Assembly (NCBI GenBank): GCA_964648765.1
Contig: CAZYLF010000001.1
Span: 229,797 to 293,796, forward strand
DNA from: an uncultured Candidatus Saccharibacteria bacterium
GTDB taxonomy: Bacteria; Patescibacteriota; Minisyncoccia; Phycocordibacterales; JACOZG01
Length of the DNA stretch: 64,000 nucleotides
Direction of reading: 5' to 3'
Of the stretch, positions 15,380-32,656 are shown piece by piece. The translations under genes and the position numbers were made by a program. The notes beneath the pieces were generated by a model. It did no database searches and was not told where the DNA came from. It saw nothing but the letters and a program-made list of their open reading frames with translations. Numbering within the stretch: the first letter of the stretch is position 1; every line of letters starts with the position of its first letter.

Positions 15380-15736
15380 TCATTTACTGTATAACAGGTA
15401 TGCATGTTTTATAAGTATGTTGTTTATTTGAGCATTTTGTAGTTCCATACTTCCGTGTTCAATAGAGAAAGTACTTTTTATGTTTTTGATAAAGTCATCT
15501 TTGGAATCCAGTAAAACAATTCTGGATAGGTCTCTAAGTTCGTTAGGATTTAGATTTTTTCTGAAGACATTAGCTATCTGGGATAAATCTTCTTGTGTGT
15601 CCAAATTAGAACCACCGATCACAACATCCCACAATGCGTTATCATCTCTTTTAACAATAATAAAAGTAGAAATATCCTTAGTGTTTCTAATTTCACTTAA
15701 GGAAGAACTGAGTTTGTTGATTATTTCTTTTTCCAT
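15380..15736 (-). CDS. Hypothetical protein, downstream partner of HEPN-like gene
   Basis: A 118-aa ORF begins 5 nt after the HEPN-like gene ends. It carries no MNT GSxxRG motif. Confidence 0.45.
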   Translation of the reverse strand: MEKEIINKLSSSLSEIRNTKDISTFIIVKRDDNALWDVVIGGSNLDTQEDLSQIANVFRKNLNPNELRDLSRIVLLDSKDDFIKNIKSTFSIEHGSMELQNAQINNILIKHAYLLYSK

Positions 15737-15740
15737 TTAA

Positions 15741-16157
15741 TTATATTTCTTTCCACAAATACCTCGCTATCCGCTGAGCTGATTTGACCGCCCCACTGGC
15801 TTGGCTGAGCATCATTTTACCCTTAATCGGAGCGTAACGCATTTCAGGATTCCACTGCAACAATATACTCCAGTCAGCTAGATAAGTGCTTTTTATCTTA
15901 TTGCCAATATGCGGCGGAACTTGTTTTAAAAGTTCTTCAAGATTATGAGTCTTTATCCTGGCCACAGCGTTAAACTCTTCATTAGTGTGAGGAATGCCAG
16001 ACAGGCAAATATTTTTACAAATTATTGCCTTTAAAGCTATTTCAATTGCGTATCCGGAGATATACAAAGACCCCTCATACGATTTGTTCTTGAGTAGAAT
16101 TTTTGAGTCTTTGATGCGAGCCCTGGATATTTTATCTAACTCTTGAGTGGATATCAT
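15741..16157 (-). CDS. HEPN-like domain protein
   Basis: 138 aa, all alpha-helical. SYEGSLYISGYAIEIALKAIICK matches the HEPN helix-1/2 pattern, and ARIKTHNLEEL gives an R-x3-HN motif, which is imperfect against Rx4-6H. Confidence 0.45.
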   Translation of the reverse strand: MISTQELDKISRARIKDSKILLKNKSYEGSLYISGYAIEIALKAIICKNICLSGIPHTNEEFNAVARIKTHNLEELLKQVPPHIGNKIKSTYLADWSILLQWNPEMRYAPIKGKMMLSQASGAVKSAQRIARYLWKEI

Positions 16158-16177: not shown

Positions 16178-16615
16178 TTAGCGAACCCGTCTTACTTGTA
16201 CAGTTTCGCTCATACCATCTACACTTAGCTCTGTACCATTAATACCGTCAATAACCGTCGCTTCTGGTCTATAGGCGTAATGGTAACTGTATTTGTATTC
16301 AGACTGTTCCCAGATGGTACCATTTTGAAATTCAAATTTTGCATCTTGAAAAAAACCTTTGAAATCAGAGACAATGGGGCCACTCTGAAGCTTGCTTACA
16401 CGGATTACTTCAATAGGTGGGCAACCACTAATCTGGACCTCCAATACCCATTTTCCCGCAGATTTATAAATGCGCACATATGGACGATATGCATATTTGT
16501 ACATGTATTTATAACGCCTTTGCTGCCACACCTGCCCATTGGTCAAATTAAAAACAGCCCCACCGTTAAAACCAGTGAATGCCCCAGAAATCTGACTATT
16601 AATTTCTTGGTCCAT
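16178..16615 (-). CDS. Hypothetical protein with two tandem ~60-aa repeats (F.F.NG.[VI]W.Q..YKY.Y.YAYRP)
   Basis: The internal duplication is visible directly in the translation. Confidence 0.5.
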   Translation of the reverse strand: MDQEINSQISGAFTGFNGGAVFNLTNGQVWQQRRYKYMYKYAYRPYVRIYKSAGKWVLEVQISGCPPIEVIRVSKLQSGPIVSDFKGFFQDAKFEFQNGTIWEQSEYKYSYHYAYRPEATVIDGINGTELSVDGMSETVQVRRVR

Positions 16616-16639
16616 TTTTATAGATTATATCAAAATATT

Positions 16640-16930
16640 AAGTAATAAATGGCCCGCACAAAGCAAGGATATCTTTGTAAAGTTTTTCGAGTGTGACATG
16701 GCTTAACTGCCGGCCAGGACTCTCCCGCGCCTCTTGTCTCGCCGCCGCTCGACTCGGGCTGGGCACCGCCTCGCGAATTTATTTGCTAATAAATTAACGC
16801 TCCGGCGTCCTCGTCCCTGGCGCGAGTGAAGCAGTTCACTCGCTGCCGGCAGTTATCCGCTACGCTCCTAACTGGGGCTCTTGTCTGACGTTAGAACCCT
16901 TTTACTACAAGGTGAGAGCGAGTTTTATTA
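16640..16930. ncRNA. GC-rich, ORF-free, highly structured region; candidate structured RNA of unknown class
   Basis: GC content is well above the ~40% background. A perfect 9-bp hairpin GCGAGTGAA/TTCACTCGC sits at 16821-16842. An AT hairpin AATTTATT/AATAAATT is also present. CTTAACTGCCGGCC (16698-16711) pairs with GCTGCCGGCAGTTA (16844-16857) over long range. No ORF of 60 aa or more is present. Confidence 0.4.
16703..16720. repeat. Direct repeat of the tRNA-Gln 3' end (CTGCCGGCCAGG-ACTC); candidate att site
   Basis: A 12-nt exact match plus ACTC to the plus-strand sequence 26113-26131 (CTGCCGGCCAGGGACTC), which forms the 3' acceptor/T-arm of tRNA-Gln. Confidence 0.45.
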
Positions 16931-16957
16931 TCGTTGCCCAGCATTTGCTATGCAGAG

Positions 16958-17476
16958 CTAAACACCTTTAACCCCACTCTGCTTTTCACTATTGTTCAAG
17001 GTGGCGTTTATTTTCTCCAAGAGTTCACTCGTATTGAAACGTCCGTGATTTTCCAATCTCAATAACGGCAACCCTGCATCTTTGAGCACTCGTTCAACTT
17101 CAACATCTCGGCCCTTGCGGTCCTGCCTCTCGTGCGTGCGGTCATCAAGTTCTATTGCGAGTTTCGGTGAGAGGTATGACTTATCGCACAAAACAAAATC
17201 CACTGATTTCTGGCTTATATGCCGAAAAGCTCCTCGCCAATTTTGCCCCACAACTTTATTGTCTACGATGGATGGAAGATGGACCTGTGGAAAGATGAGA
17301 TATTTTTCTCCCACTGCGACGACAAGAGCATCGTAGCACTCGTGTTCAGCACGAGACATAAAAAAGTTTTTCTGCTTGTATTTATATTTCCGTGGCTCAT
17401 CCACTTTGCCTCGTAAAATCTCTACGAGAACGCCGATGACCACAATGACTGCAACAATAATGAGTATCTTTATCAC
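16958..17476 (-). CDS. DUF2726-like (NERD/restriction-endonuclease-like fold) protein with N-terminal TM
   Basis: The segment FVLCDK...LAIELDDRTHERQDRKGRDVEVERVLKDAGLPLLR resembles the DUF2726 core. Confidence 0.55.
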   Translation of the reverse strand: MIKILIIVAVIVVIGVLVEILRGKVDEPRKYKYKQKNFFMSRAEHECYDALVVAVGEKYLIFPQVHLPSIVDNKVVGQNWRGAFRHISQKSVDFVLCDKSYLSPKLAIELDDRTHERQDRKGRDVEVERVLKDAGLPLLRLENHGRFNTSELLEKINATLNNSEKQSGVKGV

Positions 17477-17523
17477 AAAGACATTTTAACTTATTTTGAT
17501 GATTTACCCCACCCTCGCTCTCA

Positions 17524-18165
17524 CTATAAACTTTGGTATGCCTCTACTTGCTGGTTGTATTCGTATTGGACCATCTGATAATTGGTTCCCCATTTTTGTT
17601 TTGCTTTCGCCATAATATCTGGGTATTTTGTCTGTGCCATTATCCATTCATACGCTTCTACCTGTTGATTGTATTCATACTGGACCATTTGGTAGTTGTT
17701 GCCCCACTTCTGCTTTGCCTTAGCCATTATGTCGGGATACTTTGTTTGAGCCACTACCCAGTCGTATGCTTCAACCTGCTGGTCATACTCGTATTTAACC
17801 ATCTGATAGTTATCGCCCCATTTTGCCGAAGCATTTGATTTCAAAACCACAAGAACGCTGGCTCTGTCTGATTGTGTCGCTGGTGCTGGAGTTGGTGTGG
17901 GAGCTGGGGTCGTCGGCACTGTTGCAGGTTTGGGAGTTGTCTTTGGGGTTTGCTTAACTGGAGCAACTGCTTCTGTGGTTTTAACAGCTTCTGCCGTTTT
18001 TTGATTTTCTACTGGAGCTGGCGTTGTTGTTTCAGATGCCACTTGTGAACTGGTGCTATCGCCACCCAACGAACCAAGAAAGCCGAGGAAAATAATAATG
18101 GCGAGAGTAATGAACCACCATCGCTTGTAAAAAGGTTTCTTTGCTTTGTTGATTTGTGTGTCCAT
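17524..18165 (-). CDS. Membrane-anchored repeat protein (Pro/Thr-rich linker + 3 tandem 33-aa repeats AKAKQKWGxNYQMVQYEYNQQVEAYEWIMAQTKYPDIM)
   Basis: An N-terminal TM is followed by a PT-rich low-complexity linker and three near-identical repeats. Confidence 0.55.
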   Translation of the reverse strand: MDTQINKAKKPFYKRWWFITLAIIIFLGFLGSLGGDSTSSQVASETTTPAPVENQKTAEAVKTTEAVAPVKQTPKTTPKPATVPTTPAPTPTPAPATQSDRASVLVVLKSNASAKWGDNYQMVKYEYDQQVEAYDWVVAQTKYPDIMAKAKQKWGNNYQMVQYEYNQQVEAYEWIMAQTKYPDIMAKAKQKWGTNYQMVQYEYNQQVEAYQSL

Positions 18166-18189
18166 ATTTTTATAAAGTTATTTTAATAA

Positions 18190-19245
18190 TTATTGGCACT
18201 GCGGACTTTTAGTTCTTGATGGATACGCGGCTAAAAGAGCATCCAACGTGTCGTAGGATTTCAAATAGCTGGCACTCAAACTTTTCCATCCATCGCACGC
18301 TTCTGGGTAGTAGTATTTTGAGCTGTAATATGAGGACGTATAAAACTTTCCAGTTGATTGCGTAGTAGCTGGAGGGGCTGTCTGGGTGCTTGTGTTTGAG
18401 CTTGTCGTGTCTCCATTACAAGTAGTCGGGGACCAAAGACCCAACTGGGCTGTCTGTGCGGATTTTTGTGCCGTCTTAAACTCCGCTTGGTATTTGTAAG
18501 GAGTGTTGTAGGTGTACTCGTGAGCATACCCCTGCTCAATCATAGATTTGTTGTAGAAAAGCCCGTCATCCCGATAGACATAGGCAAGGAGGCGGTCATA
18601 CTTATCTCTCTCGCCTTGAGTTGGGTCTATTTCTATCCGCACCTTTTTTCCAGAGAGCAATTCTTTTCCTTTGTTTGATGCCTCTTTACCGAAACACTGA
18701 ACGGGCTTTCTTGGGTCCACTGTCTCTGGTGTATCCAATCCGATGAGGCGTAGCGTTTCCACTTTCCCATTCATACTGATTTTAATCGTGTCTCCGTCTA
18801 CAACTTCTGTAACAGAGTAGTAGGTATATTGAGACGAAGATGGCTGTGCGGTTGCAGGTTTGGTCGTAACTACTGGTGTCTCCGTCTTTGCTTGCGTTAC
18901 GGCAGGAGCTGGAGCATTAGGAGTTGTTGTAGCAGTATCTATTGGGTTTGGTGCAACATTATTTTGGCTCTGCGTCTGTGTTGAGATGACATTATCTGCC
19001 ACCTGCGTAGGCGTAGTGTTTCCAGAAATCAATAAAATGGCAGAGAAAAAAGTGATGAGACAGAGAGCTCCTGTCGCTGTGTATTTCCAGCTTTTCTTAT
19101 CTATGAGCTTGTAAGCAACGAACGCTCCTACTGCATACACTATCGTATTGGGTAAAGCGATGATTGCGATTATAAAAATGATGAGGGCGATACCCATCTG
19201 GTATCCAGTGGAGAGTGCTTTATATTTTGAGATTATATTTTTCAT
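18190..19245 (-). CDS. Membrane-anchored secreted thermonuclease (SNase/micrococcal nuclease family)
   Basis: The C-terminal domain LRLIGLDTPETVDP...CFGKEAS...GKKVRIEIDPTQGERDKYDRLLAYVY matches the SNase fold with catalytic D/E/R residues. A Thr-rich linker and TM helix precede it. The start is taken at the internal ATG 19245 before the TM helix. The ORF extends to 19395. Confidence 0.7.
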   Translation of the reverse strand: MKNIISKYKALSTGYQMGIALIIFIIAIIALPNTIVYAVGAFVAYKLIDKKSWKYTATGALCLITFFSAILLISGNTTPTQVADNVISTQTQSQNNVAPNPIDTATTTPNAPAPAVTQAKTETPVVTTKPATAQPSSSQYTYYSVTEVVDGDTIKISMNGKVETLRLIGLDTPETVDPRKPVQCFGKEASNKGKELLSGKKVRIEIDPTQGERDKYDRLLAYVYRDDGLFYNKSMIEQGYAHEYTYNTPYKYQAEFKTAQKSAQTAQLGLWSPTTCNGDTTSSNTSTQTAPPATTQSTGKFYTSSYYSSKYYYPEACDGWKSLSASYLKSYDTLDALLAAYPSRTKSPQCQ

Positions 19246-19525
19246 AGTAATAGTAATAAAAAATCGCCCTAATAGTTTGGGCAATTTGTTTTTTTCCAAC
19301 AAAAAGCCCATCACAAGGAAGGTCCTTTCGGATACCTCTGCACGAGTTTCCCCGTGCAACGACGTGAACGCCCTTATGATGGGTTCTCTGTTCACGTCGT
19401 TTTATGACCATATCTCAAGAAAATCTCTTGAGGGTTAGGTCCCACTGCATATTCAGTTGTGCCTACATTTAACCACACTTCTTATCAATTTCAAAGAAAA
19501 ATGATAGGATGCTGTTACTATTACT

Positions 19526-20260
19526 ATGACAATTACGATTGAAGAAAAGTTCATAAAGGATGCACGCTTGATATTGGACGAGCTCCAAGCGGAGCTTATA
19601 GCTTCCAAAGACGGCATCATACGTTACCTTTTTATAAAGGAAGACAAAGCACCCAACGAGCGAGAGCAGAGACGTATCATTCGTTGGCTTATAAACGCAG
19701 GGGCACTTCAATCTATTGGAGAAATACACGAAGACCTACCATCTATTTTTGTTACGCTTAATCCATTCGTTAAAACTGCTACTATCGGATTTCGGTTAGG
19801 TATAGATAAAACACTTTTTGCCGAGGTGAGAAAAATCTGCGAAAGTGATTTGAGTAAAAAATCAGCCAAAGAACTTTTGGACCAAGTAGAAACACTGGGC
19901 AGAGCGAAACGCCTTGAAACTCAAAAACTAACGGAGCCAGAGAAAGTCGTCATCAAACCATTTCTTGATGAACCAAGTAAGACAGTCATTCTTGCTGGAA
20001 AAAAATCTACAATCCCCGTTGGCAATCAGTGGGTTTTATGCAAAGAGCTTTTTAATAAACCAGCAAGCGATTGGGTGAAAGAAAATGATGTGGTCCACCT
20101 TTTTAACAAAGACGGCAAGCAGAGTTTCTACGATGCACAGCGTCTACTCAATGCTCGCATAGAAAAAGATTTGGGCATAAAGGATTTCATTGAATATGAG
20201 ACAGCTATGGCGAGGATAAACCCAAAAACGATTGAAAAACTGAACCATTCAGAAAAATAG
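19526..20260 (+). CDS. Hypothetical protein
   Basis: A 244-aa ORF. It is the first plus-strand gene of the element after a divergent intergenic region. Confidence 0.5.
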   Translation: MTITIEEKFIKDARLILDELQAELIASKDGIIRYLFIKEDKAPNEREQRRIIRWLINAGALQSIGEIHEDLPSIFVTLNPFVKTATIGFRLGIDKTLFAEVRKICESDLSKKSAKELLDQVETLGRAKRLETQKLTEPEKVVIKPFLDEPSKTVILAGKKSTIPVGNQWVLCKELFNKPASDWVKENDVVHLFNKDGKQSFYDAQRLLNARIEKDLGIKDFIEYETAMARINPKTIEKLNHSEK

Positions 20261-20309
20261 AGATTTCTGACTCACGAATGAGTCAAACGAACACAGGTAC
20301 GCTCAAGGC

Positions 20310-20663
20310 GTGCCTTTTTCGTTCCCAAAAATTGCACACATTATTAGCCAATATCCAATTACAATGACCAACAAAAAAACCAAAAGGTCATCAACAACCG
20401 ATGGACAAAAAGAAGCTCCGCCAAATGACCCCACGGCGGTGTTCACTACTTATGACCTCGGTGTATCCACCGCACTTTTGTGTGCGGATTTTGAGCTTGT
20501 CTCGGTAGACAAAGAGAACCCACGAAAAGCATTATTCATCTTCAAGAAAGCAGACGGCATTGAAGATGTTGCGAACCGATACTTTTCGGACAGGTTAGAA
20601 GTCAAAGCAAGGTCGTTCTTTGACCATCTCAAAGCTCTCAAGAATAAGCTTTATTCCGAGTAG
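20310..20663 (+). CDS. Hypothetical protein
   Basis: A GTG start at 20310. An alternative ATG lies at 20364. Confidence 0.4.
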   Translation: MPFSFPKIAHIISQYPITMTNKKTKRSSTTDGQKEAPPNDPTAVFTTYDLGVSTALLCADFELVSVDKENPRKALFIFKKADGIEDVANRYFSDRLEVKARSFFDHLKALKNKLYSE

Positions 20664-20665
20664 CT

Positions 20666-20851
20666 ATGCAGTTAGCGGATGAACATATCAAAGAGTTTCA
20701 GGTGCTCTACAAAAAGCACTACGGCGTTGAAATAAGCACTGCCGAAGCTCTGGAAAAAGGCATACGTCTCATCCGCTTGATGGAGATTGTTTTGAAGCAC
20801 GAAGCAAAGAAACAAGCGACACAGACGGTCCCAACTCCGATTACCAATTAA
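20666..20851 (+). CDS. Small hypothetical protein (61 aa, helical)
   Basis: The ORF is tightly packed between its neighbours. Confidence 0.35.
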   Translation: MQLADEHIKEFQVLYKKHYGVEISTAEALEKGIRLIRLMEIVLKHEAKKQATQTVPTPITN

Positions 20852-20861
20852 AAAAATAATT

Positions 20862-23051
20862 ATGAACCTATCAAACATTACAATCAAAGAATATCTTACC
20901 GAGAAAGGCATACCCTTTCGTGAGAGTGGCAAAGAGCTCATCGCCAAGTGCCTTTTCAATGATTGCGACAGAGACAGCAAAGGTGATGAAGCTCACCTTT
21001 ATTTCAGCACGGAAACAGGACAATATGATTGCAAAAAATGCGGCGAAAAAGGAAACCTGCTTACGCTCGCAAAACATCTTGGCGATACAGGACCGAAACC
21101 ACGCAAGGCAAATGCTTTCAATGCCGAGCTCGTAGAGAAATGTCATCTTGCACTGCCACCCCATATCAGAGAGTACCTGCACAAGCGTGGGCTTACGGAT
21201 GCCGTTATAGACGATTATAAGCTCGGTTACGGGCAGTTCTACCGCAAGCCGTGGATTACTATCCCTATCAAAGACATCTACGGCAACTATTCATTTTTCA
21301 AATTGAGACAGGACCCAGCGTTCGGCAACGACAAAATCACTTTCCCGAAAGGAGCGGAAGCCCAGCTTTATGATTGGGAAACTCTCGTAAAAAGTGATGT
21401 GAACAAGCCAATGATTATCAGTGAGGGTGAGATGGACCGATTGCTTCTCATTTCAAAAGGAGTGCCAGCGATAACCTCCACTCACGGAGCGATGACATTC
21501 AAAGATGAGTGGGTTGAAAAAGTCGGCAAAGACAGAAAAATCTACATCTGCTTTGATAACGACGACGCTGGCAAAAAAGGGTCCGAACGAGTAGCAAAGA
21601 TGGTGGAAAATGGTGGATGCGAGACACACATCATCACACTTCCCGAAGAAGTCGGAGAGCACGGAGACATCACAGATTATTTCGTGAAGCTCAATGGGTC
21701 CGTAGATGATTTGTTCAGCAAATACGCAAAGCCATACCCAGAAAAAATTGATACCACACAATTTTCTGCGATGAGTTCGGAGCAACTCTTGGACACCCTC
21801 GGACTTACCATCAAATACGATGCCGAAAATAAGCTGGCTACTTTCCTTTGCGAGCTGTCGGCTTATACAGAAAGCTCACAGTTTAATATCAGTTATAATG
21901 CACCATCTTCAACAGGTAAAAGCTATATACCGACAGAGATAGCTCGCCTATTCCCAGAGGATGACGTGATGGAGATTGCTTACTGCTCACCCACAGCTTT
22001 TTTCCACGATGTCGGGCAGTATGACAAGGAAAAGAACAGCTACTTGGTAGACCTCTCACACAAGATACTCATCTTCTTGGACCAACCGCACAACGAACTG
22101 CTTGCCCGATTGCGTCCACTCCTGTCGCACGACAAGAAAGAGATTGCTATCAAAATCACCGACAAGACCCAAAAGAATGGGACCAAAACAAAGAACATCC
22201 TTTTGCGTGGCTATCCATCCGTTATTTTCTGCACGGCTGGGCTCCGCATAGACGAGCAAGAAGCGACACGTTTTCTGCTTCTCTCTCCAGAGGTCAATCA
22301 AGACAAAATACAGCAAGGTATCAGTGCCACTATTCTCAAAGAAGCAGACACTGATAGTTTCAAAAGCTGGCTTGAAGAAAACCCAGACCGAGCATTACTC
22401 AAAGAGCGTATCCGTGCTATCAAACTGGAGAACGTTAAAGAGATAAACATCGCATCGCACGAAACTATCAAAGAGAGGTTTCTGAAAAATAACAAGACAC
22501 TCAAGCCACGCCACCAACGAGACATCAAACGTCTTTTGTCTCTCATCAAATCCTTTGCCATCCTCAATGTCTGGTGGCGAGAAAGAGATGGGTCCACGAT
22601 TACTGCGAATGAAGATGACATCAATGATGCTTTCAAGCTCTGGGACAAAATATCTGTGAGTCAGGAGTTGAACTTGCCCCCTTACATCTACAATCTCTAC
22701 AAAGAGGTCATATTGCCAGCGTGGGAGGCAAAAAACGACAGCAGGAGCGAGGCGTTTGAGGAACTCACAGGCAAGCTCGGGCTCTCACGCCAAGAGGTCC
22801 TCGGGAAGCATTTTGCGGTATACGGCAGGATGCTTGATAGCCATCAACTCCGTCAACAGATACTCCCTATGCTTGAAACAGCAGGGCTTATTGTGCAGGA
22901 ACAAGACCCGAGCGATAAACGCAAGATGATGATTTTCCCCTCTACCCTGTATCAACTTTCTGAACCAAAAGGAAATAGTGAGACGGACAGTGGGGTAAAA
23001 AACACCGAACAGAAAGACGATGAGATTATTAGCGATAACATAGATTTTTAA
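20862..23051 (+). CDS. DNA primase: zinc-binding domain + TOPRIM + C-terminal P-loop domain
   Basis: An N-terminal Cys cluster CLFNDC...CKKCGEKGN forms a primase-type zinc finger. TOPRIM motifs IISEGEMD and ICFDNDDAGKKG are present. Downstream lie a Walker-A-like APSSTGKS and a Walker-B-like ILIFLDQ. Confidence 0.7.
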   Translation: MNLSNITIKEYLTEKGIPFRESGKELIAKCLFNDCDRDSKGDEAHLYFSTETGQYDCKKCGEKGNLLTLAKHLGDTGPKPRKANAFNAELVEKCHLALPPHIREYLHKRGLTDAVIDDYKLGYGQFYRKPWITIPIKDIYGNYSFFKLRQDPAFGNDKITFPKGAEAQLYDWETLVKSDVNKPMIISEGEMDRLLLISKGVPAITSTHGAMTFKDEWVEKVGKDRKIYICFDNDDAGKKGSERVAKMVENGGCETHIITLPEEVGEHGDITDYFVKLNGSVDDLFSKYAKPYPEKIDTTQFSAMSSEQLLDTLGLTIKYDAENKLATFLCELSAYTESSQFNISYNAPSSTGKSYIPTEIARLFPEDDVMEIAYCSPTAFFHDVGQYDKEKNSYLVDLSHKILIFLDQPHNELLARLRPLLSHDKKEIAIKITDKTQKNGTKTKNILLRGYPSVIFCTAGLRIDEQEATRFLLLSPEVNQDKIQQGISATILKEADTDSFKSWLEENPDRALLKERIRAIKLENVKEINIASHETIKERFLKNNKTLKPRHQRDIKRLLSLIKSFAILNVWWRERDGSTITANEDDINDAFKLWDKISVSQELNLPPYIYNLYKEVILPAWEAKNDSRSEAFEELTGKLGLSRQEVLGKHFAVYGRMLDSHQLRQQILPMLETAGLIVQEQDPSDKRKMMIFPSTLYQLSEPKGNSETDSGVKNTEQKDDEIISDNIDF

Positions 23052-23055
23052 CACT

Positions 23056-23634
23056 ATGGAAGAAACATCACAAAAACAAATTGATGCCAACCGAGAGAAC
23101 GGCAAGAAAGGCGGAGTGAAGACCGACGAGGGCAAAGCTGTGAGCAAATATAACGCTATCAAACACGGTATTTTGAAAGAGGTCGTCTCTGATTACGAGC
23201 AGAGTTTCTACGAGGACATTATCGAACGTCTCAATGACCAATTCAGCCCCGTAGGAGTGCTTGAGAAGATGCTCGTGGACCGAGTGGGTGTGTATTACCT
23301 CAAGCTCTACCGAGTAGCAAAGGCAGAGAATGAGTATATGCAGTCGGTCCTCAATCCGAGAAAGGTTACAGTCAGAGACACCCTTGATATTGGGATGAAC
23401 TACACTGAAACCATAATAGAAAATGAGGGCTACATTCCAAAGGTCGGTTTGGGTCCAGTAGAAAAACTCTCCGACACTTATCTCCGCTACGAAATAGCGA
23501 TTGAGAACAGATTGTACAAAGCACTTCACGAACTCCAACGATTACAGTCAGCAAGAAATGGTGAAAAGGTCCCACCCCCATTAGCATTAGATATTGATGT
23601 GTCAGGAGAAAAGGAAAATGGGTTCGTTTCGTAA
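23056..23634 (+). CDS. Hypothetical protein
   Basis: A 192-aa ORF placed 4 nt after the primase stop. Confidence 0.45.
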   Translation: MEETSQKQIDANRENGKKGGVKTDEGKAVSKYNAIKHGILKEVVSDYEQSFYEDIIERLNDQFSPVGVLEKMLVDRVGVYYLKLYRVAKAENEYMQSVLNPRKVTVRDTLDIGMNYTETIIENEGYIPKVGLGPVEKLSDTYLRYEIAIENRLYKALHELQRLQSARNGEKVPPPLALDIDVSGEKENGFVS

Positions 23635-23773
23635 AAGTGAAAAACGCCATCCGTATTTGGTGTATTCACTCAAAAAGACGAAAAAAGCTCTCAACACAAA
23701 CGTAAAATGTCGGTTTTATTAGGGAAAATAGGGTAACAATCTCAAATGATTTCGGCAATTTATTTCCAAAACT

Positions 23774-24370
23774 ATGAGTAAAAGCGAAGCAGACAACGTG
23801 AAAAAAATCTCTACGGCTTTCCTAAAAAAGCACGGCTACTTCAAAGGGTGGAGGTCAGGTACGATTACTTGGACCAACAACGGCTTATGGGGTGAAAATA
23901 AAAGCAGTGTGGGGGTAGAGGTTTCTACATCAGATGGAGTGAGTCATCTCCGTATTACCTACACCCAGACAGACAGGGATACGGACGAAAAGAAAGAGTT
24001 TGATTACAAAGTACCACTCACCACTACCCCGTGCCGTTATGGAGGCGAGAGATACTGGTTTCTCTGTCCTCTGGTTAAAAATAATGTGCATTGTGGCAAA
24101 CGAGTAGGCACACTCTACAAAGACGGAGATTACTTTGGCTGTCGCCACTGCTATGACCTCGGCTATAGTTCTCAAAAAACCAATCACCGATACAAAATGC
24201 TACCCCTGTTCAACGTGTTCACGATTGAGAAGAAAATTGAGGAACTTCAAGGGCAGATAAAGCGTCCCCACTACGCTGGCAAGCCAACAAGAAAAGAAAG
24301 ACAGCTTGAAAAGCTATATGAACAGGTAAACACCAACTATGCTCAACTTTTACAAAAAAAATTGTTATAA
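23774..24370 (+). CDS. Hypothetical protein with Cys4 cluster (C..C...C..C)
   Basis: 198 aa. CPLVKNNVHCGKRVG...CRHC suggests a zinc ribbon. Confidence 0.45.
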   Translation: MSKSEADNVKKISTAFLKKHGYFKGWRSGTITWTNNGLWGENKSSVGVEVSTSDGVSHLRITYTQTDRDTDEKKEFDYKVPLTTTPCRYGGERYWFLCPLVKNNVHCGKRVGTLYKDGDYFGCRHCYDLGYSSQKTNHRYKMLPLFNVFTIEKKIEELQGQIKRPHYAGKPTRKERQLEKLYEQVNTNYAQLLQKKLL

Positions 24371-24519
24371 TGCTTATGTTGTCCCAGTTAGTAATTGTTT
24401 TGCCAGAGGTTTTTTATTGCAAAATGGAACCCGAGAGGGGCGTTCTGCCAACTATTTTGCAGTCCTCTGGATTACACTTATAGCTGGGACAACCAGAGCG
24501 TCCCTTTCGGGTTTTTAAT

Positions 24520-26172
24520 ATGAAAAAAGATAACGAAAAAATAAAATACTTTGTCTATGTGCGAAAATCTACCGAGGGCGTAGAGCGACAAGCACTCTCC
24601 ATTCCTGCACAGAAAGACCAGCTCGTAAAAGTGTTTGGACACTTGGATATTGAGTTCGTGGAAGACCGAGCAAGTGCTTTCAAGCCATTCAACCGCCCAG
24701 CTTTTGCAGATATGCTTGAGCGTATAAGAAAAGGAGAAAGGACTGGGCTTATTGCTTGGCATCCAGACCGCCTTTCACGAAATGAAAAAGACGCTGGCGA
24801 AATAACTTATATGATACGCACTGGCGTGATTGCAGAACTCAAGCTCGCTACCTACCAGTTTGAAAACACTCCCGAGGGTATTTGGATGCTCCAGATGGCA
24901 CTCTCTCAATCTCAATACGAAAGTGCAAAGAAAGGGCGAGACGTGAAGCGTGGGCTTGAACAGAGTGCAAAAATGGGCTTTTACCCTGCACCAGCACCTC
25001 TAGGTTACTTGGATGACAAATACAGCGAACGAGGTAAGAAAAAGAAATTGCCAGACCCAGACAGATTTGACCTTGTTCGTAAGATGTTTGATTTGATGCT
25101 CACTGGAGAACATACCCCACCTCAAATCAGAAGAATAGTGAACGAGGAGTGGGGGTTCAGAGGACCATACGGAAAAAAGATGAGTAACAGTGCCATCTAT
25201 AACCTTTTTACTCGCACATATTACTACGGCGAGTTTGAGTATCCTGTCGCAAGTGGAAAGTTTTACATTGGAAGTCATAAGCCGATGATTACCAGAGACG
25301 AGTACGAGAGGATACAGATATTGCTCGGTAGGAAAAATGCAACGAGATTGAAACAGCACGATATTATTTACCGAGGTCCAATGAGGTGTGGCGAATGTGG
25401 GGCGATGATTACTGCCGAAGAAAAGACAAAATATCAGAAGAACGGAAACACACATCACTACACCTACTACCACTGCACAAAGAGAAAGGACCCTAACTGT
25501 TCTCAAAAATCTATTGAGGAAAAGGAGCTTGAAAAACAAATTGCTAAAGAGCTTGGAAAGATAGAGATACCTGCGGACTTCAAAAACTGGGCTCTGGCAC
25601 GCTTGAAAACACAAAACTCACAAGAGGTTGATGACAGAGAAAAGATATATGGGTCCCAGAGGCGTGGATATGAGGCAGTAGTGCGAAAAATAGACAACCT
25701 CATTGATATGCGTGCAGACCAAGAAATAACCGAGGATGAGTTCAAACACAGAAAAGAAGTGTTGCTTGCAGAAAAATCCAAGTTCAAAGAGCTCCTCAAG
25801 GATACAGACACAAGAATTGATAAGTGGCTTGAGATAGCAGAGCGTGGCTTCAATTATTCAGAAAAAGCATCGGCTGTTTTTGCAGACATTGAAGACCCAA
25901 ACACTCTTGAAGCCAAGAAAGAGATATTTGCCACATTAGGTTCGGACCTCATCCTAAAAGACAGAATGTTGAGCTTTGAGTGGGATAAACTGCTATTTCC
26001 AATAAAAGAGATGGCAAAAGAGGTTCGTGGTATTCACGAAAGGTTAGAACCTCCGAAAAAGCCAATGACTACAAAGGAAATGGAAGAAATCTACTCACAA
26101 AATCCTAGATTGCTGCCGGCCAGGGACTCGAACCCCAATACCATCCTCCAGAGGGATGTGTCCTACCATTAG
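24520..26172 (+). CDS. Large serine recombinase (integrase)
   Basis: The N-terminal resolvase domain has a catalytic Ser in YVRKSTEG. A recombinase domain follows, then a zinc ribbon (CGECGAM...HHYTYYHCTKRKDPNC) and a coiled coil. The last ~20 codons are antisense to tRNA-Gln. Confidence 0.85.
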   Translation: MKKDNEKIKYFVYVRKSTEGVERQALSIPAQKDQLVKVFGHLDIEFVEDRASAFKPFNRPAFADMLERIRKGERTGLIAWHPDRLSRNEKDAGEITYMIRTGVIAELKLATYQFENTPEGIWMLQMALSQSQYESAKKGRDVKRGLEQSAKMGFYPAPAPLGYLDDKYSERGKKKKLPDPDRFDLVRKMFDLMLTGEHTPPQIRRIVNEEWGFRGPYGKKMSNSAIYNLFTRTYYYGEFEYPVASGKFYIGSHKPMITRDEYERIQILLGRKNATRLKQHDIIYRGPMRCGECGAMITAEEKTKYQKNGNTHHYTYYHCTKRKDPNCSQKSIEEKELEKQIAKELGKIEIPADFKNWALARLKTQNSQEVDDREKIYGSQRRGYEAVVRKIDNLIDMRADQEITEDEFKHRKEVLLAEKSKFKELLKDTDTRIDKWLEIAERGFNYSEKASAVFADIEDPNTLEAKKEIFATLGSDLILKDRMLSFEWDKLLFPIKEMAKEVRGIHERLEPPKKPMTTKEMEEIYSQNPRLLPARDSNPNTILQRDVSYH

Positions 26173-26183
26173 ACGAGCCGGCA
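26113..26183 (-). tRNA. tRNA-Gln (anticodon CUG)
   Basis: The minus-strand sequence TGCCGGC-TC-GTCT-AATGGTA-GGAC-A-CATCC-CTCTGGA-GGATG-GTAT-TGGGG-TTCGAGT-CCCTG-GCCGGCA-G folds as a cloverleaf. It has a U1-A72 pair, U8, GG in the D-loop, a TTCGAGT T-loop and a G73 discriminator. CCA is not encoded. Confidence 0.75.
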
Positions 26184-31720: not shown

Positions 31721-32656
31721 ATGCAAAAAACAGCTGAATTTGTGAGCCCAAGTCATCCAGACAAAAAATGTGATTTTATTGCCGACAGTATTTTAGATGC
31801 GTATCTTAAGGGTGATAAGGAGAGCAGAGTGGCCGTGGAGGTGATGGGCGGACATAAATTAATTTGTGTTAATGGCGAAGTGACGTCATTGGCGAAGCCA
31901 GATATTAAGTTATTGGTAAAACAAATTGTGGGTAGTGAGTACAAAGTAATCGTTAATCTTGTGACACAAAGCAGAGAAATTTCTCAAGGTGTGGACACTG
32001 GTGGGGCTGGTGATCAGGGGATAATGAAGGGCTTTGCAACTTCCGAGACGAAGACTTTAATGCCGAGAGAGTATGAACTTGCGCGCACGCTTTGCCAAAA
32101 AATTTATGAGGTTTACCCATTTGACGGAAAGACTCAAGTAACTTTGGAAGGTGAAAAAATTAAAACAGTGGTGGCGAGTTTTCAAAATAGTAAAAACAAA
32201 GACTTGTTGAATTTGGTGAAAAAAATAGTAAAAGCTGAAGAATATTTTATTAATCCCGCTGGCGAGTGGAAGCAAGGTGGCTTTGATGCTGATACGGGGT
32301 TATCGGGTAGAAAGTTGATCGTGGATAATTATGGTCCAGAGATTACGATTGGTGGTGGGTCATTCTCGGGTAAAGATTACACCAAAGTGGATCGGTCGGG
32401 AGCCTATATGGCCAGGCGCGTGGCGGTGGATTTGCTTAAAGCGCGTAAGGCCAAAAATGTTTATACCAAACTTGCTTATGCGATAGGCAAAAGTGAGCCG
32501 GTGATGGCGGTGGCACTTGTGGATGGCAAGGAAGAGATAATTACGGGTTACGATTTATCTCCACTTGGGATCCGTAAGGCATTAAAATTGGATAAGGTTA
32601 AATATACTAATACTTGTGTTTGGGGACATTTTGGCCGCAAATTCCCTTGGGATTAG
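31721..32656 (+). CDS. metK: S-adenosylmethionine synthetase (short form, 311 aa)
   Basis: SHPDKKCDFIADSILDAYL, GDQGIMKGFA and GGGSFSGKDYTKVDRSGAYMARRVA match MetK signatures. The protein is about 75 aa shorter than typical MetK. Confidence 0.8.
   Translation: MQKTAEFVSPSHPDKKCDFIADSILDAYLKGDKESRVAVEVMGGHKLICVNGEVTSLAKPDIKLLVKQIVGSEYKVIVNLVTQSREISQGVDTGGAGDQGIMKGFATSETKTLMPREYELARTLCQKIYEVYPFDGKTQVTLEGEKIKTVVASFQNSKNKDLLNLVKKIVKAEEYFINPAGEWKQGGFDADTGLSGRKLIVDNYGPEITIGGGSFSGKDYTKVDRSGAYMARRVAVDLLKARKAKNVYTKLAYAIGKSEPVMAVALVDGKEEIITGYDLSPLGIRKALKLDKVKYTNTCVWGHFGRKFPWD

Follow-up and report, generated by a model that had tools for sequence, protein, structure and literature searches.

The window analysed here, a 64-kb stretch (64,000 nt) of a contig from an uncultured Candidatus Saccharibacteria bacterium, carries an intact tRNA-Gln(CUG) gene next to a block of ten open reading frames and a LOOT RNA (Table 1); the ARAGORN call for the tRNA, given as tRNA-Gln(ctg), covers 26112-26183 on the minus strand. 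The genes of the block form a leftward arm and a rightward module. The strand switch between them, put at 19.4 kb in a first-pass annotation of this DNA, was found at 19.2-19.5 kb and holds the LOOT RNA, and the interior gene calls of that annotation (DUF2726, SNase, Toprim with Walker-A, DUF5659 and a membrane protein with three internal repeats) agreed with the Pfam searches and the translations.

Table 1. Features at the tRNA-Gln locus (positions are those of the window; LSR, large serine recombinase).
Feature	Coordinates	Strand	Basis
Small tRNA-3´-end duplication unit, outside the LSR element	16707..16864		Absent from L005/L006; similar units elsewhere
CTCCTAA, 7 nt, uncertain assignment	16865..16871		6/7 common with the L005 flank
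attL: core CTG 16872-16874, then P´ half-site, then displaced native LSR C-terminal codons	16872..16961	+	Translation, L088 DNA
DUF2726 protein	16958..17476	-	Pfam PF10881, E=2e-29
213-aa protein: N-terminal transmembrane segment, Pro/Thr-rich linker, three internal repeats	17524..18165	-	Translation
SNase, membrane-anchored staphylococcal-type nuclease, 335 aa	18190..19197	-	Pfam SNase, E=6e-25
LOOT RNA (RF03000)	19319..19441	-	Rfam, 72 bits vs gathering 46.4, full length 1-121
244-aa protein, first gene of the rightward module	19526..20260	+	ORF
DUF5659 protein (99 aa by gene callers), then 61-aa ORF	20310..20851	+	Pfam PF18903
729-aa Zn-finger and Toprim (DnaG-type) primase protein with C-terminal Walker-A region	20862..23051	+	Pfam Toprim_2, E=8e-11
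192-aa protein of the core module	23056..23634	+	ORF; ORFs of 165-192 aa in the corresponding place in relatives
198-aa Cys-rich protein directly upstream of the LSR	23774..24370	+	ORF
LSR ORF as integrated, 550 aa	24520..26172	+	Pfam PF00239, PF07508, PF13408
attR: P arm, core and B´ arm	26088..26137		L005/L006 homology end at 26115; measured offsets
tRNA-Gln(CUG), intact, host attachment target	26113..26183	-	ARAGORN; Rfam RF00005, 50.4 bits

In the leftward arm, the SNase start is the one given by gene callers (the mechanical ORF extends to 19395). The protein further matches NCBIfam NucI-like and, in PADLOC, the candidate single family PDLC01096 SNc+LTD (E=2e-52). The DUF2726 protein and the 213-aa repeat protein gave no match in PADLOC, while the latter showed weak PHROG matches to superinfection-exclusion families, over its N-terminus only. 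In relatives the corresponding arm carries genes for a ResIII helicase and an N6_N4 methyltransferase, and one relative has a reverse transcriptase there as well. This cargo arm is variable and defence-like, and a role in defence is plausible.

The rightward module opens with a 244-aa protein that had no family match, followed by the DUF5659 gene and the 61-aa ORF, a pair that precedes the primase gene in an order kept in L005, L090, L093, L094 and L096. The 729-aa protein, which also matches phrog_239 primase/helicase (PHROGs) and the TIGR01391 dnaG domain and whose translation contains the Walker-A motif APSSTGKS, is probably a replication protein. For the 198-aa Cys-rich protein no family match was obtained in Pfam, PADLOC, PHROGs or NCBIfam; a 202-aa ORF lies at the equivalent position in L090, L091, L094 and L096, the likeness being one of position and size only, and we infer that the 198-aa protein is a candidate accessory or directionality factor. 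Between the divergent genes at the strand switch, the LOOT RNA lies upstream of the SNase gene, ~120 nt from its start. LOOT-like RNAs were present in the window element, in its copy L005 and in 20 further loci with recombinase homologues, with 19 of 23 matches on the strand opposite the recombinase gene (10-kb upstream flank). LOOT, an orphan RNA, is a recurrent feature of the element family, in which it may have a role.

The 550-aa ORF adjoining the tRNA had been called an LSR, and all three LSR domains were found in it by Pfam search and with the family profile: a resolvase domain (PF00239, residues 11-153, E=7e-20) and, C-terminal to this catalytic domain, Recombinase (PF07508) and Zn_ribbon_recom (PF13408). 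In the family alignment R15, K16 and S17 hardly vary, and no variation occurs at D83, R84 or R87. The family profile aligns with the C-terminal domain of A118 integrase (4KIS/6DNW, residues 225-447) and also matches the TP901-1 catalytic domain, the protein matches phrog_95 integrase (PHROGs), and more than 2700 homologues were found. The overlap of the ORF with the tRNA described in the first-pass annotation is real, but it is not confined to the 3´ half, as it takes in 60 nt, most of the tRNA. LSR residues 1-532 (up to 26115) are element-encoded and the final 18 are tRNA-antisense codons. As integrated, the LSR is without its native tail, which may impair it.

The ends of the element were located by comparison with relatives. 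Two JGI metagenomes (L005/L006) contain a copy with 95% nucleotide identity and with both flanks different; its homology to the window spans exactly 16865-26115, and 16707-16864 is missing there. At a further locus, L088, the recombinase is 76% identical to the window LSR and its gene is unsplit, and the DNA of that gene, ...AATCCACGCTTG-CTG-GGTCTCTTAAACGAAGTTAGAACC, equals window 26101-26115 joined to 16872-16898. The unsplit gene together with the L005/L006 limits therefore places the true attL at 16872-16874, with only CTG common with attR. At the level of sequence comparison, these relatives establish the boundaries of the element as 16872-26115.

To the right of the attL core, the P´ half-site reaches ~16898 and has GAACC at offset 22. 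The last 29 codons of the recombinase are displaced to this end, where they read LGLLSDVRTLLLQGESEFYYRCPAFAMQS up to a stop codon; the translation of 16872-16958 shows 68% identity over 25 residues (E=3e-11) to the C-terminus of P0012, an unsplit homologue. The frame of this tail is still open in translation. In the 16 tail codons past the half-site, the window and L088 differ by 6 synonymous and 6 nonsynonymous changes (hand count), and the tail therefore is or was translated. At attR, the P arm (approximately 26088-26112) consists of the recombinase 3´ codons ...SQNPRL, the core CTG lies at 26113-26115 and the tRNA supplies the B´ arm, where the offset of GAACC from the core is 17. The B´ half-site is thus the T-arm and acceptor 3´ strand of tRNA-Gln.

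The CTCCTAA just left of the attL core is missing from the unsplit attP of L088 and is probably host-side (B arm), in which case its 6/7 match to the L005 flank could be explained by a target preference of the B arm. Alternatively, the attP of the window lineage might have had a 7-nt insertion, with crossover at CT 16865-16866, but such a site would break the 5-nt offset described below and frameshift the LSR tail.

We conclude that 16872-26115 (~9.24 kb) is very probably an integrated mobile element with its own attP inside the LSR reading frame, inserted at the tRNA-Gln 3´ end and made up of the LSR, a primase-type replication module, the LOOT RNA and the variable cargo arm. The first-pass annotation had likewise proposed a mobile element with an LSR at the 3´ end of tRNA-Gln and with its right end at the tRNA, which is borne out by the L005/L006 homology stopping at 26115; its size of ~9.5 kb was too large, given the true attL core.

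That annotation had taken a 12-nt exact repeat of the tRNA 3´ end, together with an adjacent ACTC, as attL in the classic duplicated-tRNA-end geometry. The repeat is present. The 12-mer CTGCCGGCCAGG corresponds to the 3´-terminal 12 nt of the tRNA, which comprise 4 nt of T-stem, the acceptor 3´ strand and the discriminator. The whole 64 kb contain two exact copies and no more, 16707-16718 and 26113-26124, both in the same orientation, and ACTC matches beside both copies past a 1-nt gap. It exceeds chance, as two matches were seen in 0 of 100 shuffles, and since four other homologous loci also have tRNA-3´-end-anchored repeats, several kb ahead of the recombinase gene, the window repeat is not a chance match. 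A single element spanning 16719-26112, with the two 12-mers as attL and attR cores, would account for an exact repeat anchored on the discriminator base, and for the anchored 12-21-nt repeats that L016, L034, L063 and L067 carry 8-10 kb ahead of the recombinase gene. Such an element is nonetheless highly improbable. L005/L006 carry the element without the 12-mer and the adjoining DNA; the P´-type GAACC and the native LSR tail both follow 16872 and neither follows the 12-mer; the canonical attL lies inside the repeat by ~176-178 nt in L016 and L034 and by ~4 kb in L063; and serine recombinases are known to require a core of only 2 bp. Similar repeat units also occur at tRNAs without any LSR element, and between a recombinase and its tRNA. 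The first-pass annotation had itself said that copies of the block lacking the repeat as a junction would tell against its geometry, and this was borne out in part by L005/L006; together with the L088 junction at CTG, these copies indicate that the 12-nt repeat is not attL and that the recombinase does not work by the classic geometry.

The left 12-mer belongs instead to other DNA. It lies 147 nt outside the L005-shared block and 153 nt outside the attL core, and forms, with its ACTC, the first repeat (R1) of a unit in which it is followed by a GC-rich segment of 125 nt (M, 16719-16843) and then by a further copy, of 8 nt (R2, CTGCCGGC, 16844-16851); no Rfam family matched within 16707-16864. 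The 12-mer with 16719-16871 is a small tRNA-3´-end duplication unit, older than or independent of the LSR element. As the repeat lies in this other unit, 153 nt beyond the left element end, 16719-26112 is accreted foreign DNA in two separate units, the LSR element and the small duplication unit.

These features suggest how the element may integrate. In the circular form, attP would lie inside the last ~40 codons of the LSR gene, with a P arm encoding ...YSQNPRL, the core CTG (Leu) and a P´ arm encoding GLLSDVRT..., a site that we reconstructed as 26088-26115 joined to 16875-16900. The predicted attB occupies the 3´ extremity of tRNA-Gln, in which the B´ arm would be the acceptor 3´ strand and T-arm and the core, CAG, would comprise the last two acceptor-stem bases (C71-A72) and the discriminator G73; the zinc-ribbon domain of the LSR probably reads the T-arm GAACC. 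The LSR would recombine attP with attB by a 2-bp staggered crossover, with the dinucleotide within CTG, which would leave the tRNA intact and alter only its 3´ trailer. With attP inside the reading frame, integration would split off the native 29-codon tail and move it to the far left end of the element, and the integrated gene would end instead in 18 residues from the tRNA antisense strand. The GAACC-type motif is 5 nt farther from the core in the element half-site (22) than in the tRNA T-arm (17), and the same +5 offset between P´ and B´ was seen in 9 of 9 other loci measured (10/10 with the window; the window and eight others were scored by script, and L016, missed by the script, was read by hand). 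A 5-bp offset between attB and attP motifs is typical of serine integrase sites. The two placements of attL predict different empty sites, ...GCTACGCTCCTAA-CTG-CCGGCCAGGG with the CTG core and ...GACATGGCTTAA joined directly to CTGCCGGCCAGGGACTCG with the 12-mer.

Among 80 homologous loci from GTDB genomes, 68 of which had enough room to judge, 52 show the 3´ end of the recombinase gene meeting a tRNA gene encoded on the other strand; these tRNAs are of the types Gln, Asn, His, Lys, Trp, Ser, Asp, Ile, Ala and Glu. Many of the homologous proteins end in DSN[QP]D..LQR..SYH, the antisense of a T-arm. Displaced native tails were located 5-11 kb upstream in at least 10 further loci, each with a core of 4-10 nt that matches the tRNA terminus of the same locus. 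Judged from these loci, the LSR family is linked to tRNA genes family-wide, and the element is one of a large and seemingly undescribed group of tRNA-targeting serine-recombinase elements of tiny-genome, Patescibacteria-type bacteria. The right flank of L005 has no recognisable tRNA, and its insertion site is a pseudo-site or else lies within a tandem array.

The element may still be mobile. Two metagenome scans and one viral scan yielded no empty site or circular junction, and the Logan contig L001 runs unbroken through the left junction, with no empty-site variant visible in that sample. Along with the exchange of the LSR tail upon integration, these observations would fit a fixed, decaying and immobile remnant, its LSR crippled by tail loss and the block now chromosomal DNA. 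We consider this quite unlikely, as all ten ORFs and the frame of the displaced tail are intact, other samples contain the 95%-identical copy at a different locus, and most family members are in exactly the same split state, which marks the split as the normal integrated form rather than decay.

A prophage was rejected, as no capsid, portal, terminase or tail matches were found among the 10 proteins (PHROGs). A phage satellite or defective prophage with helper-dependent transfer, rather than a plasmid-like integrative element, would agree with the small size, the primase/helicase-type replication protein with its PHROG matches and an architecture like that of the PICI-like tycheposons (bioRxiv 10.1101/2020.12.28.424599). 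Yet PHROGs gave no packaging matches either, and the viral contig collection only one match, at 36% identity, making this reading unlikely. The tycheposons of Prochlorococcus, compared in architecture with the text of that paper only, likewise combine a site-specific integrase, a primase/helicase module and variable cargo at tRNA genes. They undergo tandem accretion, leaving partial tRNAs, and 27 of 937 have a large serine recombinase (bioRxiv 10.1101/2020.12.28.424599). They differ from the window element in their cyanobacterial hosts and mostly tyrosine recombinases with partial-tRNA direct repeats, and no LOOT RNA is reported for them.

The LSR is the same three-domain enzyme as the serine integrases of integrative elements and temperate phages (A118/LI Int, TP901-1, phiC31, Bxb1, CcrB and XisF), and its system shares with theirs short att sites with a minimal common core and a half-site motif shifted 5 bp between attB and attP, a displacement that structural work on A118 integrase has reportedly described. 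Unlike for those enzymes, the target is a tRNA gene 3´ terminus, with the T-arm as outer attB motif, and attP lies inside the recombinase ORF. In SSV1-type (type I) archaeal tyrosine integrases, attP lies in the int gene and integration at a tRNA gene splits it; the window resembles these in having the recombinase gene partitioned, with the 3´ portion carried to the opposite end of the integrated element. It differs in that the enzyme is a serine recombinase in bacteria, and only ~29 C-terminal codons are displaced, leaving the catalytic and DNA-binding domains whole. In a large survey of LSR att sites, the term 'tRNA' is absent from the main text (PMC10083194). At its distal end the composite 16707-26124 has a displaced fragment from the 3´ part of the tRNA, as do Islander-type islands, in which tyrosine integrases act and the fragment marks the island end; in the window there is no tyrosine integrase (no Phage_integrase match among the element proteins in Pfam or PHROGs) and the fragment is outside the recombinase element. 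A classical tRNA island was rejected, the recombinase being serine-type and the tRNA-segment repeat, 147/153 nt outside, not being the distal boundary. The core common to attL and attR is only 3 nt in the window, compared with 4-10 nt in relatives.

ARAGORN detected only one tRNA in the window, a minus-strand tRNA-Gln(ctg) at 26112-26183, which Rfam placed at 26113-26183 (50 bits). The 550-aa ORF at 24520-26172 (+), with Resolvase, Recombinase and Zn_ribbon_recom domains, extends 60 nt into this tRNA on the opposite strand and ends in ...LLPARDSNPNTILQRDVSYH, residues read from the antisense of the tRNA. The 12-mer that makes up the tRNA 3´ end, CTGCCGGCCAGG, terminating exactly at the discriminator base, is present in exactly two copies in the window (16707-16718 and 26113-26124), with two matches seen in 0 of 100 shuffles. 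The overlap of tRNA-Gln by a large serine recombinase and the exact upstream copy of the tRNA 3´ end, both reported in the first-pass annotation, were thus borne out, and its interior gene calls (DUF2726, SNase, Toprim/Walker-A and repeat membrane protein) were correct. The 550-aa protein was not on record in an exact look-up, since gene calling breaks off where contigs end within the tRNA; 3´ ends of recombinase genes in the tRNA-targeting family will be mis-called. A phmmer search of PDB sequences with the recombinase gave nothing, and a match was obtained with the recombinase family profile only.

The extent of the mobile DNA was revealed by a second copy of the element. Logan contigs identical to the window were retrieved through the Toprim protein. 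The closest recombinase homologue, P0001 (98% identical), pointed to two JGI contigs, L005 and L006; in both, the element recurs (95% nucleotide identity) between genes unlike those flanking it in the window, and no tRNA is present. BLAST homology between the window and L005 spans exactly 16865-26115 (junctions in the table). The mobile block therefore does not include 16707-16864 or the upstream 12-mer, at odds with the proposal that the 12-nt repeats mark the element ends. A mobile element at the tRNA-Gln 3´ end, of a known general kind, stands, but its boundary needed correction. Island-finders relying on tRNA-fragment repeats would set the wrong boundary, as happened here.

Features of the window element and of related loci (window positions unless a locus is named)
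Feature	Position	Strand	Remark
Left junction, window			...CCGCTACG / CTCCTAACTGGGG
Left junction, L005			...TTAAAAAT / CTCCTAGCTGGGG
Right junction, window			...CCTAGATTGCTG / CCGGCC (tRNA)
Right junction, L005			...CCTAGATTGCTG / ACTGTC
DUF2726	16958-17476
Membrane protein with three repeats	17524-18165
SNase	18190-19197
DUF5659			core module
Toprim protein, 729 aa, with Walker-A motif			core module
LOOT RNA, RF03000	19319-19441	-	Rfam; divergent intergenic region, ~120 nt upstream of the SNase gene
LOOT RNA in relatives	L005 4802-4924; L024 2601-2714; L026 6908-7022		Rfam
Arms of relatives	L090 1-3290; L094 1-5783; L096 1-3411; L097 2-3043; L091 5019-6513
Duplication units	window 16707-16871; L016 305-487; L034 1300-1478
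Duplication units, no adjacent recombinase	L024 past tRNA-Val (14939); L041 past tRNA-Lys (12906)
Duplication units between recombinase and tRNA	L024 tRNA-Arg (8057); L026 tRNA-Asn (11663)

More than 2700 recombinase homologues were found, many with a C-terminus of the form ...NPxLL[RPG]D.DSN[QP]D..LQR..SYH, which is T-arm-to-D-loop antisense, and a second class ending in ...NPxLL-x-x-[LV]-[DN]-[DE]-V-R-T.... In L088, which encodes a second-class protein (P0012, 76% identical), the DNA is uninterrupted and reads ...AATCCACGCTTG CTG GGTCTCTTAAACGAAGTTAGAACC.... The right end of the window element (26101-26115) reads AATCCTAGATTG CTG and the left end, from 16872, reads CTG GGGCTCTTGTCTGACGTTAGAACC; translation of 16872-16958 yields LGLLSDVRTLLLQGESEFYYRCPAFAMQS followed by a stop, with 68% identity to the P0012 C-terminus (E=3e-11). 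As the two ends match the unsplit L088 gene, the recombinase gene would be whole in the circular form, with the attachment site within its last ~40 codons, and integration would leave the codons of its tail stranded at the other end of the element. Across the 16 codons past the first nine of the tail, a hand count put the synonymous differences between the window and L088 at 6 and the nonsynonymous ones likewise at 6, which suggests that the displaced tail is, or recently was, translated. The canonical core CTG lies at 16872-16874 and 26113-26115 and in the tRNA corresponds to CAG, the last two acceptor-stem bases (C71-A72) and discriminator G73, such that integration would spare the tRNA, altering just its trailer. 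An attP within an ORF is an unusual design; among other recombinases, a gene split on integration is not known outside the SSV-type tyrosine integrases.

The arrangement of motifs around the core is that of a serine-integrase site. In the window, the GAACC on the tRNA side, in the T-arm, has an offset of 17 from the core, against 22 for the GAACC on the element side. An identical +5 shift was found in 9 of 9 other loci with pairable attL and attR, eight of them scored by script; the ninth, L016, was overlooked by the script and was read by hand (GCACC, 22 versus 17). Structural work on the A118 integrase reportedly established a zinc-ribbon-domain motif 5 bp further out in attP than in attB as the signature of such sites. 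No GAACC-type motif is present in the sequence following the 12-mer at 16707. The right flank of L005 was read as a putative pseudo-attB, since GAAC there sits at an attB-type offset. The T-arm as apparent outer attB motif bears on site choice by serine integrases.

For the left boundary, two readings of CTCCTAA (16865-16871) were weighed. Six of its seven nucleotides are common to the L005 flank, and it is missing from the unsplit L088 attP. We favour the view that CTCCTAA is host-side sequence probably chosen by the recombinase, reflecting a B-arm preference. Alternatively, crossover could occur at CT 16865-16866, but the motif offset would then be 12 nt, a value seen in no relative, and the recombinase tail would be frameshifted. 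Given the two readings, the left boundary is stated as 16865-16874, most likely at 16872. With crossover at the CTG core, the empty host site would read CCGCTACGCTCCTAA-CTG-CCGGCCAGGGACTCGAACC and the circular-form attP AATCCTAGATTG-CTG-GGGCTCTTGTCTGACGTTAGAACC; a site centred on the 12-mer would instead predict the junction GGCTTAA-CTGCCGGCCAGGGACTCG or a circle containing 16719-16871. A single degenerate pattern spanning the window and L005 sites gave 0 matches to an empty site in the metagenome scan, and the circular attP junction gave 0 matches in metagenome contigs and 0 in viral contigs, where the recombinase protein had one distant match only. No close relative of the host genome was found in the scanned collections, and the left ends of the close relatives L090, L091, L094 and L096 are beyond the contigs or unrecognisable within them.

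Targeting of tRNA genes extends to the wider family. A scan of one genome per species (GTDB) identified 80 loci with recombinase homologues, mostly in Patescibacteria metagenome-assembled genomes. An opposite-strand tRNA is located at the recombinase 3´ end in 52 of the 80 loci, of which only 68 have enough sequence past the gene to judge, the other 12 contigs ending within 80 nt. The tRNAs targeted include Gln, Asn, His, Lys, Trp, Ser, Asp, Ile, Ala and Glu. For at least 10 loci, we detected displaced native tails 5-11 kb upstream with 4-10 nt cores that match the terminus of their own tRNA. Tandem native tails upstream of one recombinase element in L009 (about 496 and 1086, including a different subtype, DAFRT...) and L023 (about 3013, 4744 and 5355) indicate repeated integrations at one tRNA. 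The short-read Logan contigs L001-L004, from the same organism as the window, end in the tRNA body (26147-26171), from both sides; together with the 12 of 80 contig ends, these breaks show that the family is systematically fragmented at attR in metagenome assemblies. The Logan breaks (26147, 26171) were rejected as evidence of an empty site, both being inside the tRNA body, and fit another tRNA-Gln in the community rather than a junction. The P0039 tail MMRTPFSRHFR, considered as a junction resembling segment M (16719-16843), was ruled out by the L087 DNA. We also noted some homologues with an unsplit native tail inside long chromosomal contigs (L043, L032, L064, L076 and L073), including non-Patescibacteria such as Abditibacterium; thus, not every member of the wider family is split by integration.

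According to a 2020 survey, tRNA genes were not known as targets of serine integrases, and the 14 of 297 cases that it counted were said to need proof (PMC7192596); the main text of a large survey of LSR att sites does not use the term 'tRNA' (PMC10083194). No later description of tRNA-targeting serine integrases was found in the literature searched, and searches combining serine recombinase and Patescibacteria returned nothing relevant. The window element belongs to an apparently undescribed clade of serine recombinases that as a whole targets tRNA genes, spanning at least 10 tRNA species. This clade is a main class of integrative element among Patescibacteria-type bacteria, about whose mobile DNA little is known, and is a source of numerous natural integrases whose targets are highly conserved, with att sites legible straight from genomes. 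The architecture of the window element, as well as tandem accretion and leftover partial tRNAs, is shared with tycheposons.

Repeats of the tRNA 3´ end were also observed upstream of the recombinase in L016 (13 nt), L034 (14 nt), L063 (21 nt) and L067 (12 nt), and L016 and L034 are laid out like the window, with the repeat followed by ~165-180 nt and then a canonical attL. Small units, 60-180 nt long, are found immediately 3´ of a tRNA gene, each closing with a T-loop-to-discriminator self-copy of 12-25 nt. In L024, L041 and L026, 60-155 nt separate the tRNA from the copy of its own segment (14-25 nt), and the pair of units in L024 are mutually homologous, with conserved ends. That such units occur without or apart from a recombinase element argues that window 16707-16871 is a separate small tRNA-end duplication unit. 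The units may be either remnants of older islands with a T-loop crossover or miniature tRNA-targeting elements. They had no family match in Rfam, a search of 16500-17000 for known RNA gave noise only (E>0.3), and nhmmer with M found no relatives among 86 loci. The window unit folds with z=-3.1 on the tRNA strand. M was rejected as a piece of a larger conserved RNA or element end, its similarity to the L016 unit being just ~55 nt, as was a tRNA-like cloverleaf formed by M, the 12-mer and the 8-nt copy R2 (16844-16851); an acceptor-like helix closes the window fold, via the palindromic acceptor sequence, and is impossible in L016. The L005 left flank (2274-2362) starts with TGGCTCCGGGG, resembling a tRNA 3´ end (compare tRNA-Asn of L045 and L051), followed by ACTCTCGCCCG, similar to the beginning of M. 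The L005 copy may also adjoin a duplication unit, though its right end has no detectable tRNA.

By position, order and annotation in the relatives, the element has a conserved core of DUF5659, a ~60-aa ORF, the Toprim/Walker-A protein, a 165-192-aa ORF, a 198-202-aa ORF and the recombinase, and a variable leftward arm, occupied in the window by the SNase, repeat protein and DUF2726 genes. Among the close relatives (L090, L091, L094, L096 and L097, recombinase 75-80% identical), the arms of L090, L094, L096 and L097 encode a ResIII helicase, an N6_N4 methyltransferase and an HTH protein, which we read as restriction-modification-like; L094 additionally carries a 756-aa reverse transcriptase. 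IS1595 and a tRNA-Gly are present in the arms of L091 and L093. The window SNase matched the PADLOC candidate PDLC01096 (E=2e-52), and no virion genes were found among the element proteins. Because of the core module, the variable arm, the PADLOC match and the lack of virion genes, we read the window element as a putative plasmid-like integrative element with a defence-type cargo slot, which across the family houses nuclease, restriction-modification-like and reverse-transcriptase genes. The primase protein would replicate the excised element.

The window element also contains a LOOT RNA. A covariance model built from the four copies of the window, L005, L024 and L026 gave 23 matches, one each in the window and L005 and 21 in 20 further loci with recombinase homologues. 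For 19 of the 23, the match was opposite the recombinase strand and within its 10-kb upstream flank, most being 1.7-5 kb away. The matches point to LOOT as a recurrent internal part of this recombinase/primase element family, sited in the intergenic region between the divergent genes, giving an orphan motif a concrete genetic context. It is conceivable, though we consider it improbable, that the selected, native C-terminus of the recombinase exists only while the element is circular and gives way to a truncated or tRNA-derived one once the element is integrated, that the state of the tail is a built-in switch of recombination direction or expression, and that LOOT is the family's dedicated regulatory or replication RNA.

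Outside the element, a HEPN-domain protein (15741-16157, minus strand) followed by a 118-aa ORF lies to the left (region 15380-16157) and may form a toxin-antitoxin-like pair. A SAM riboswitch (RF00162, 31568-31668, plus strand, 59.8 bits) was detected directly upstream of the S-adenosylmethionine synthetase gene (31721-32656), an ordinary arrangement.
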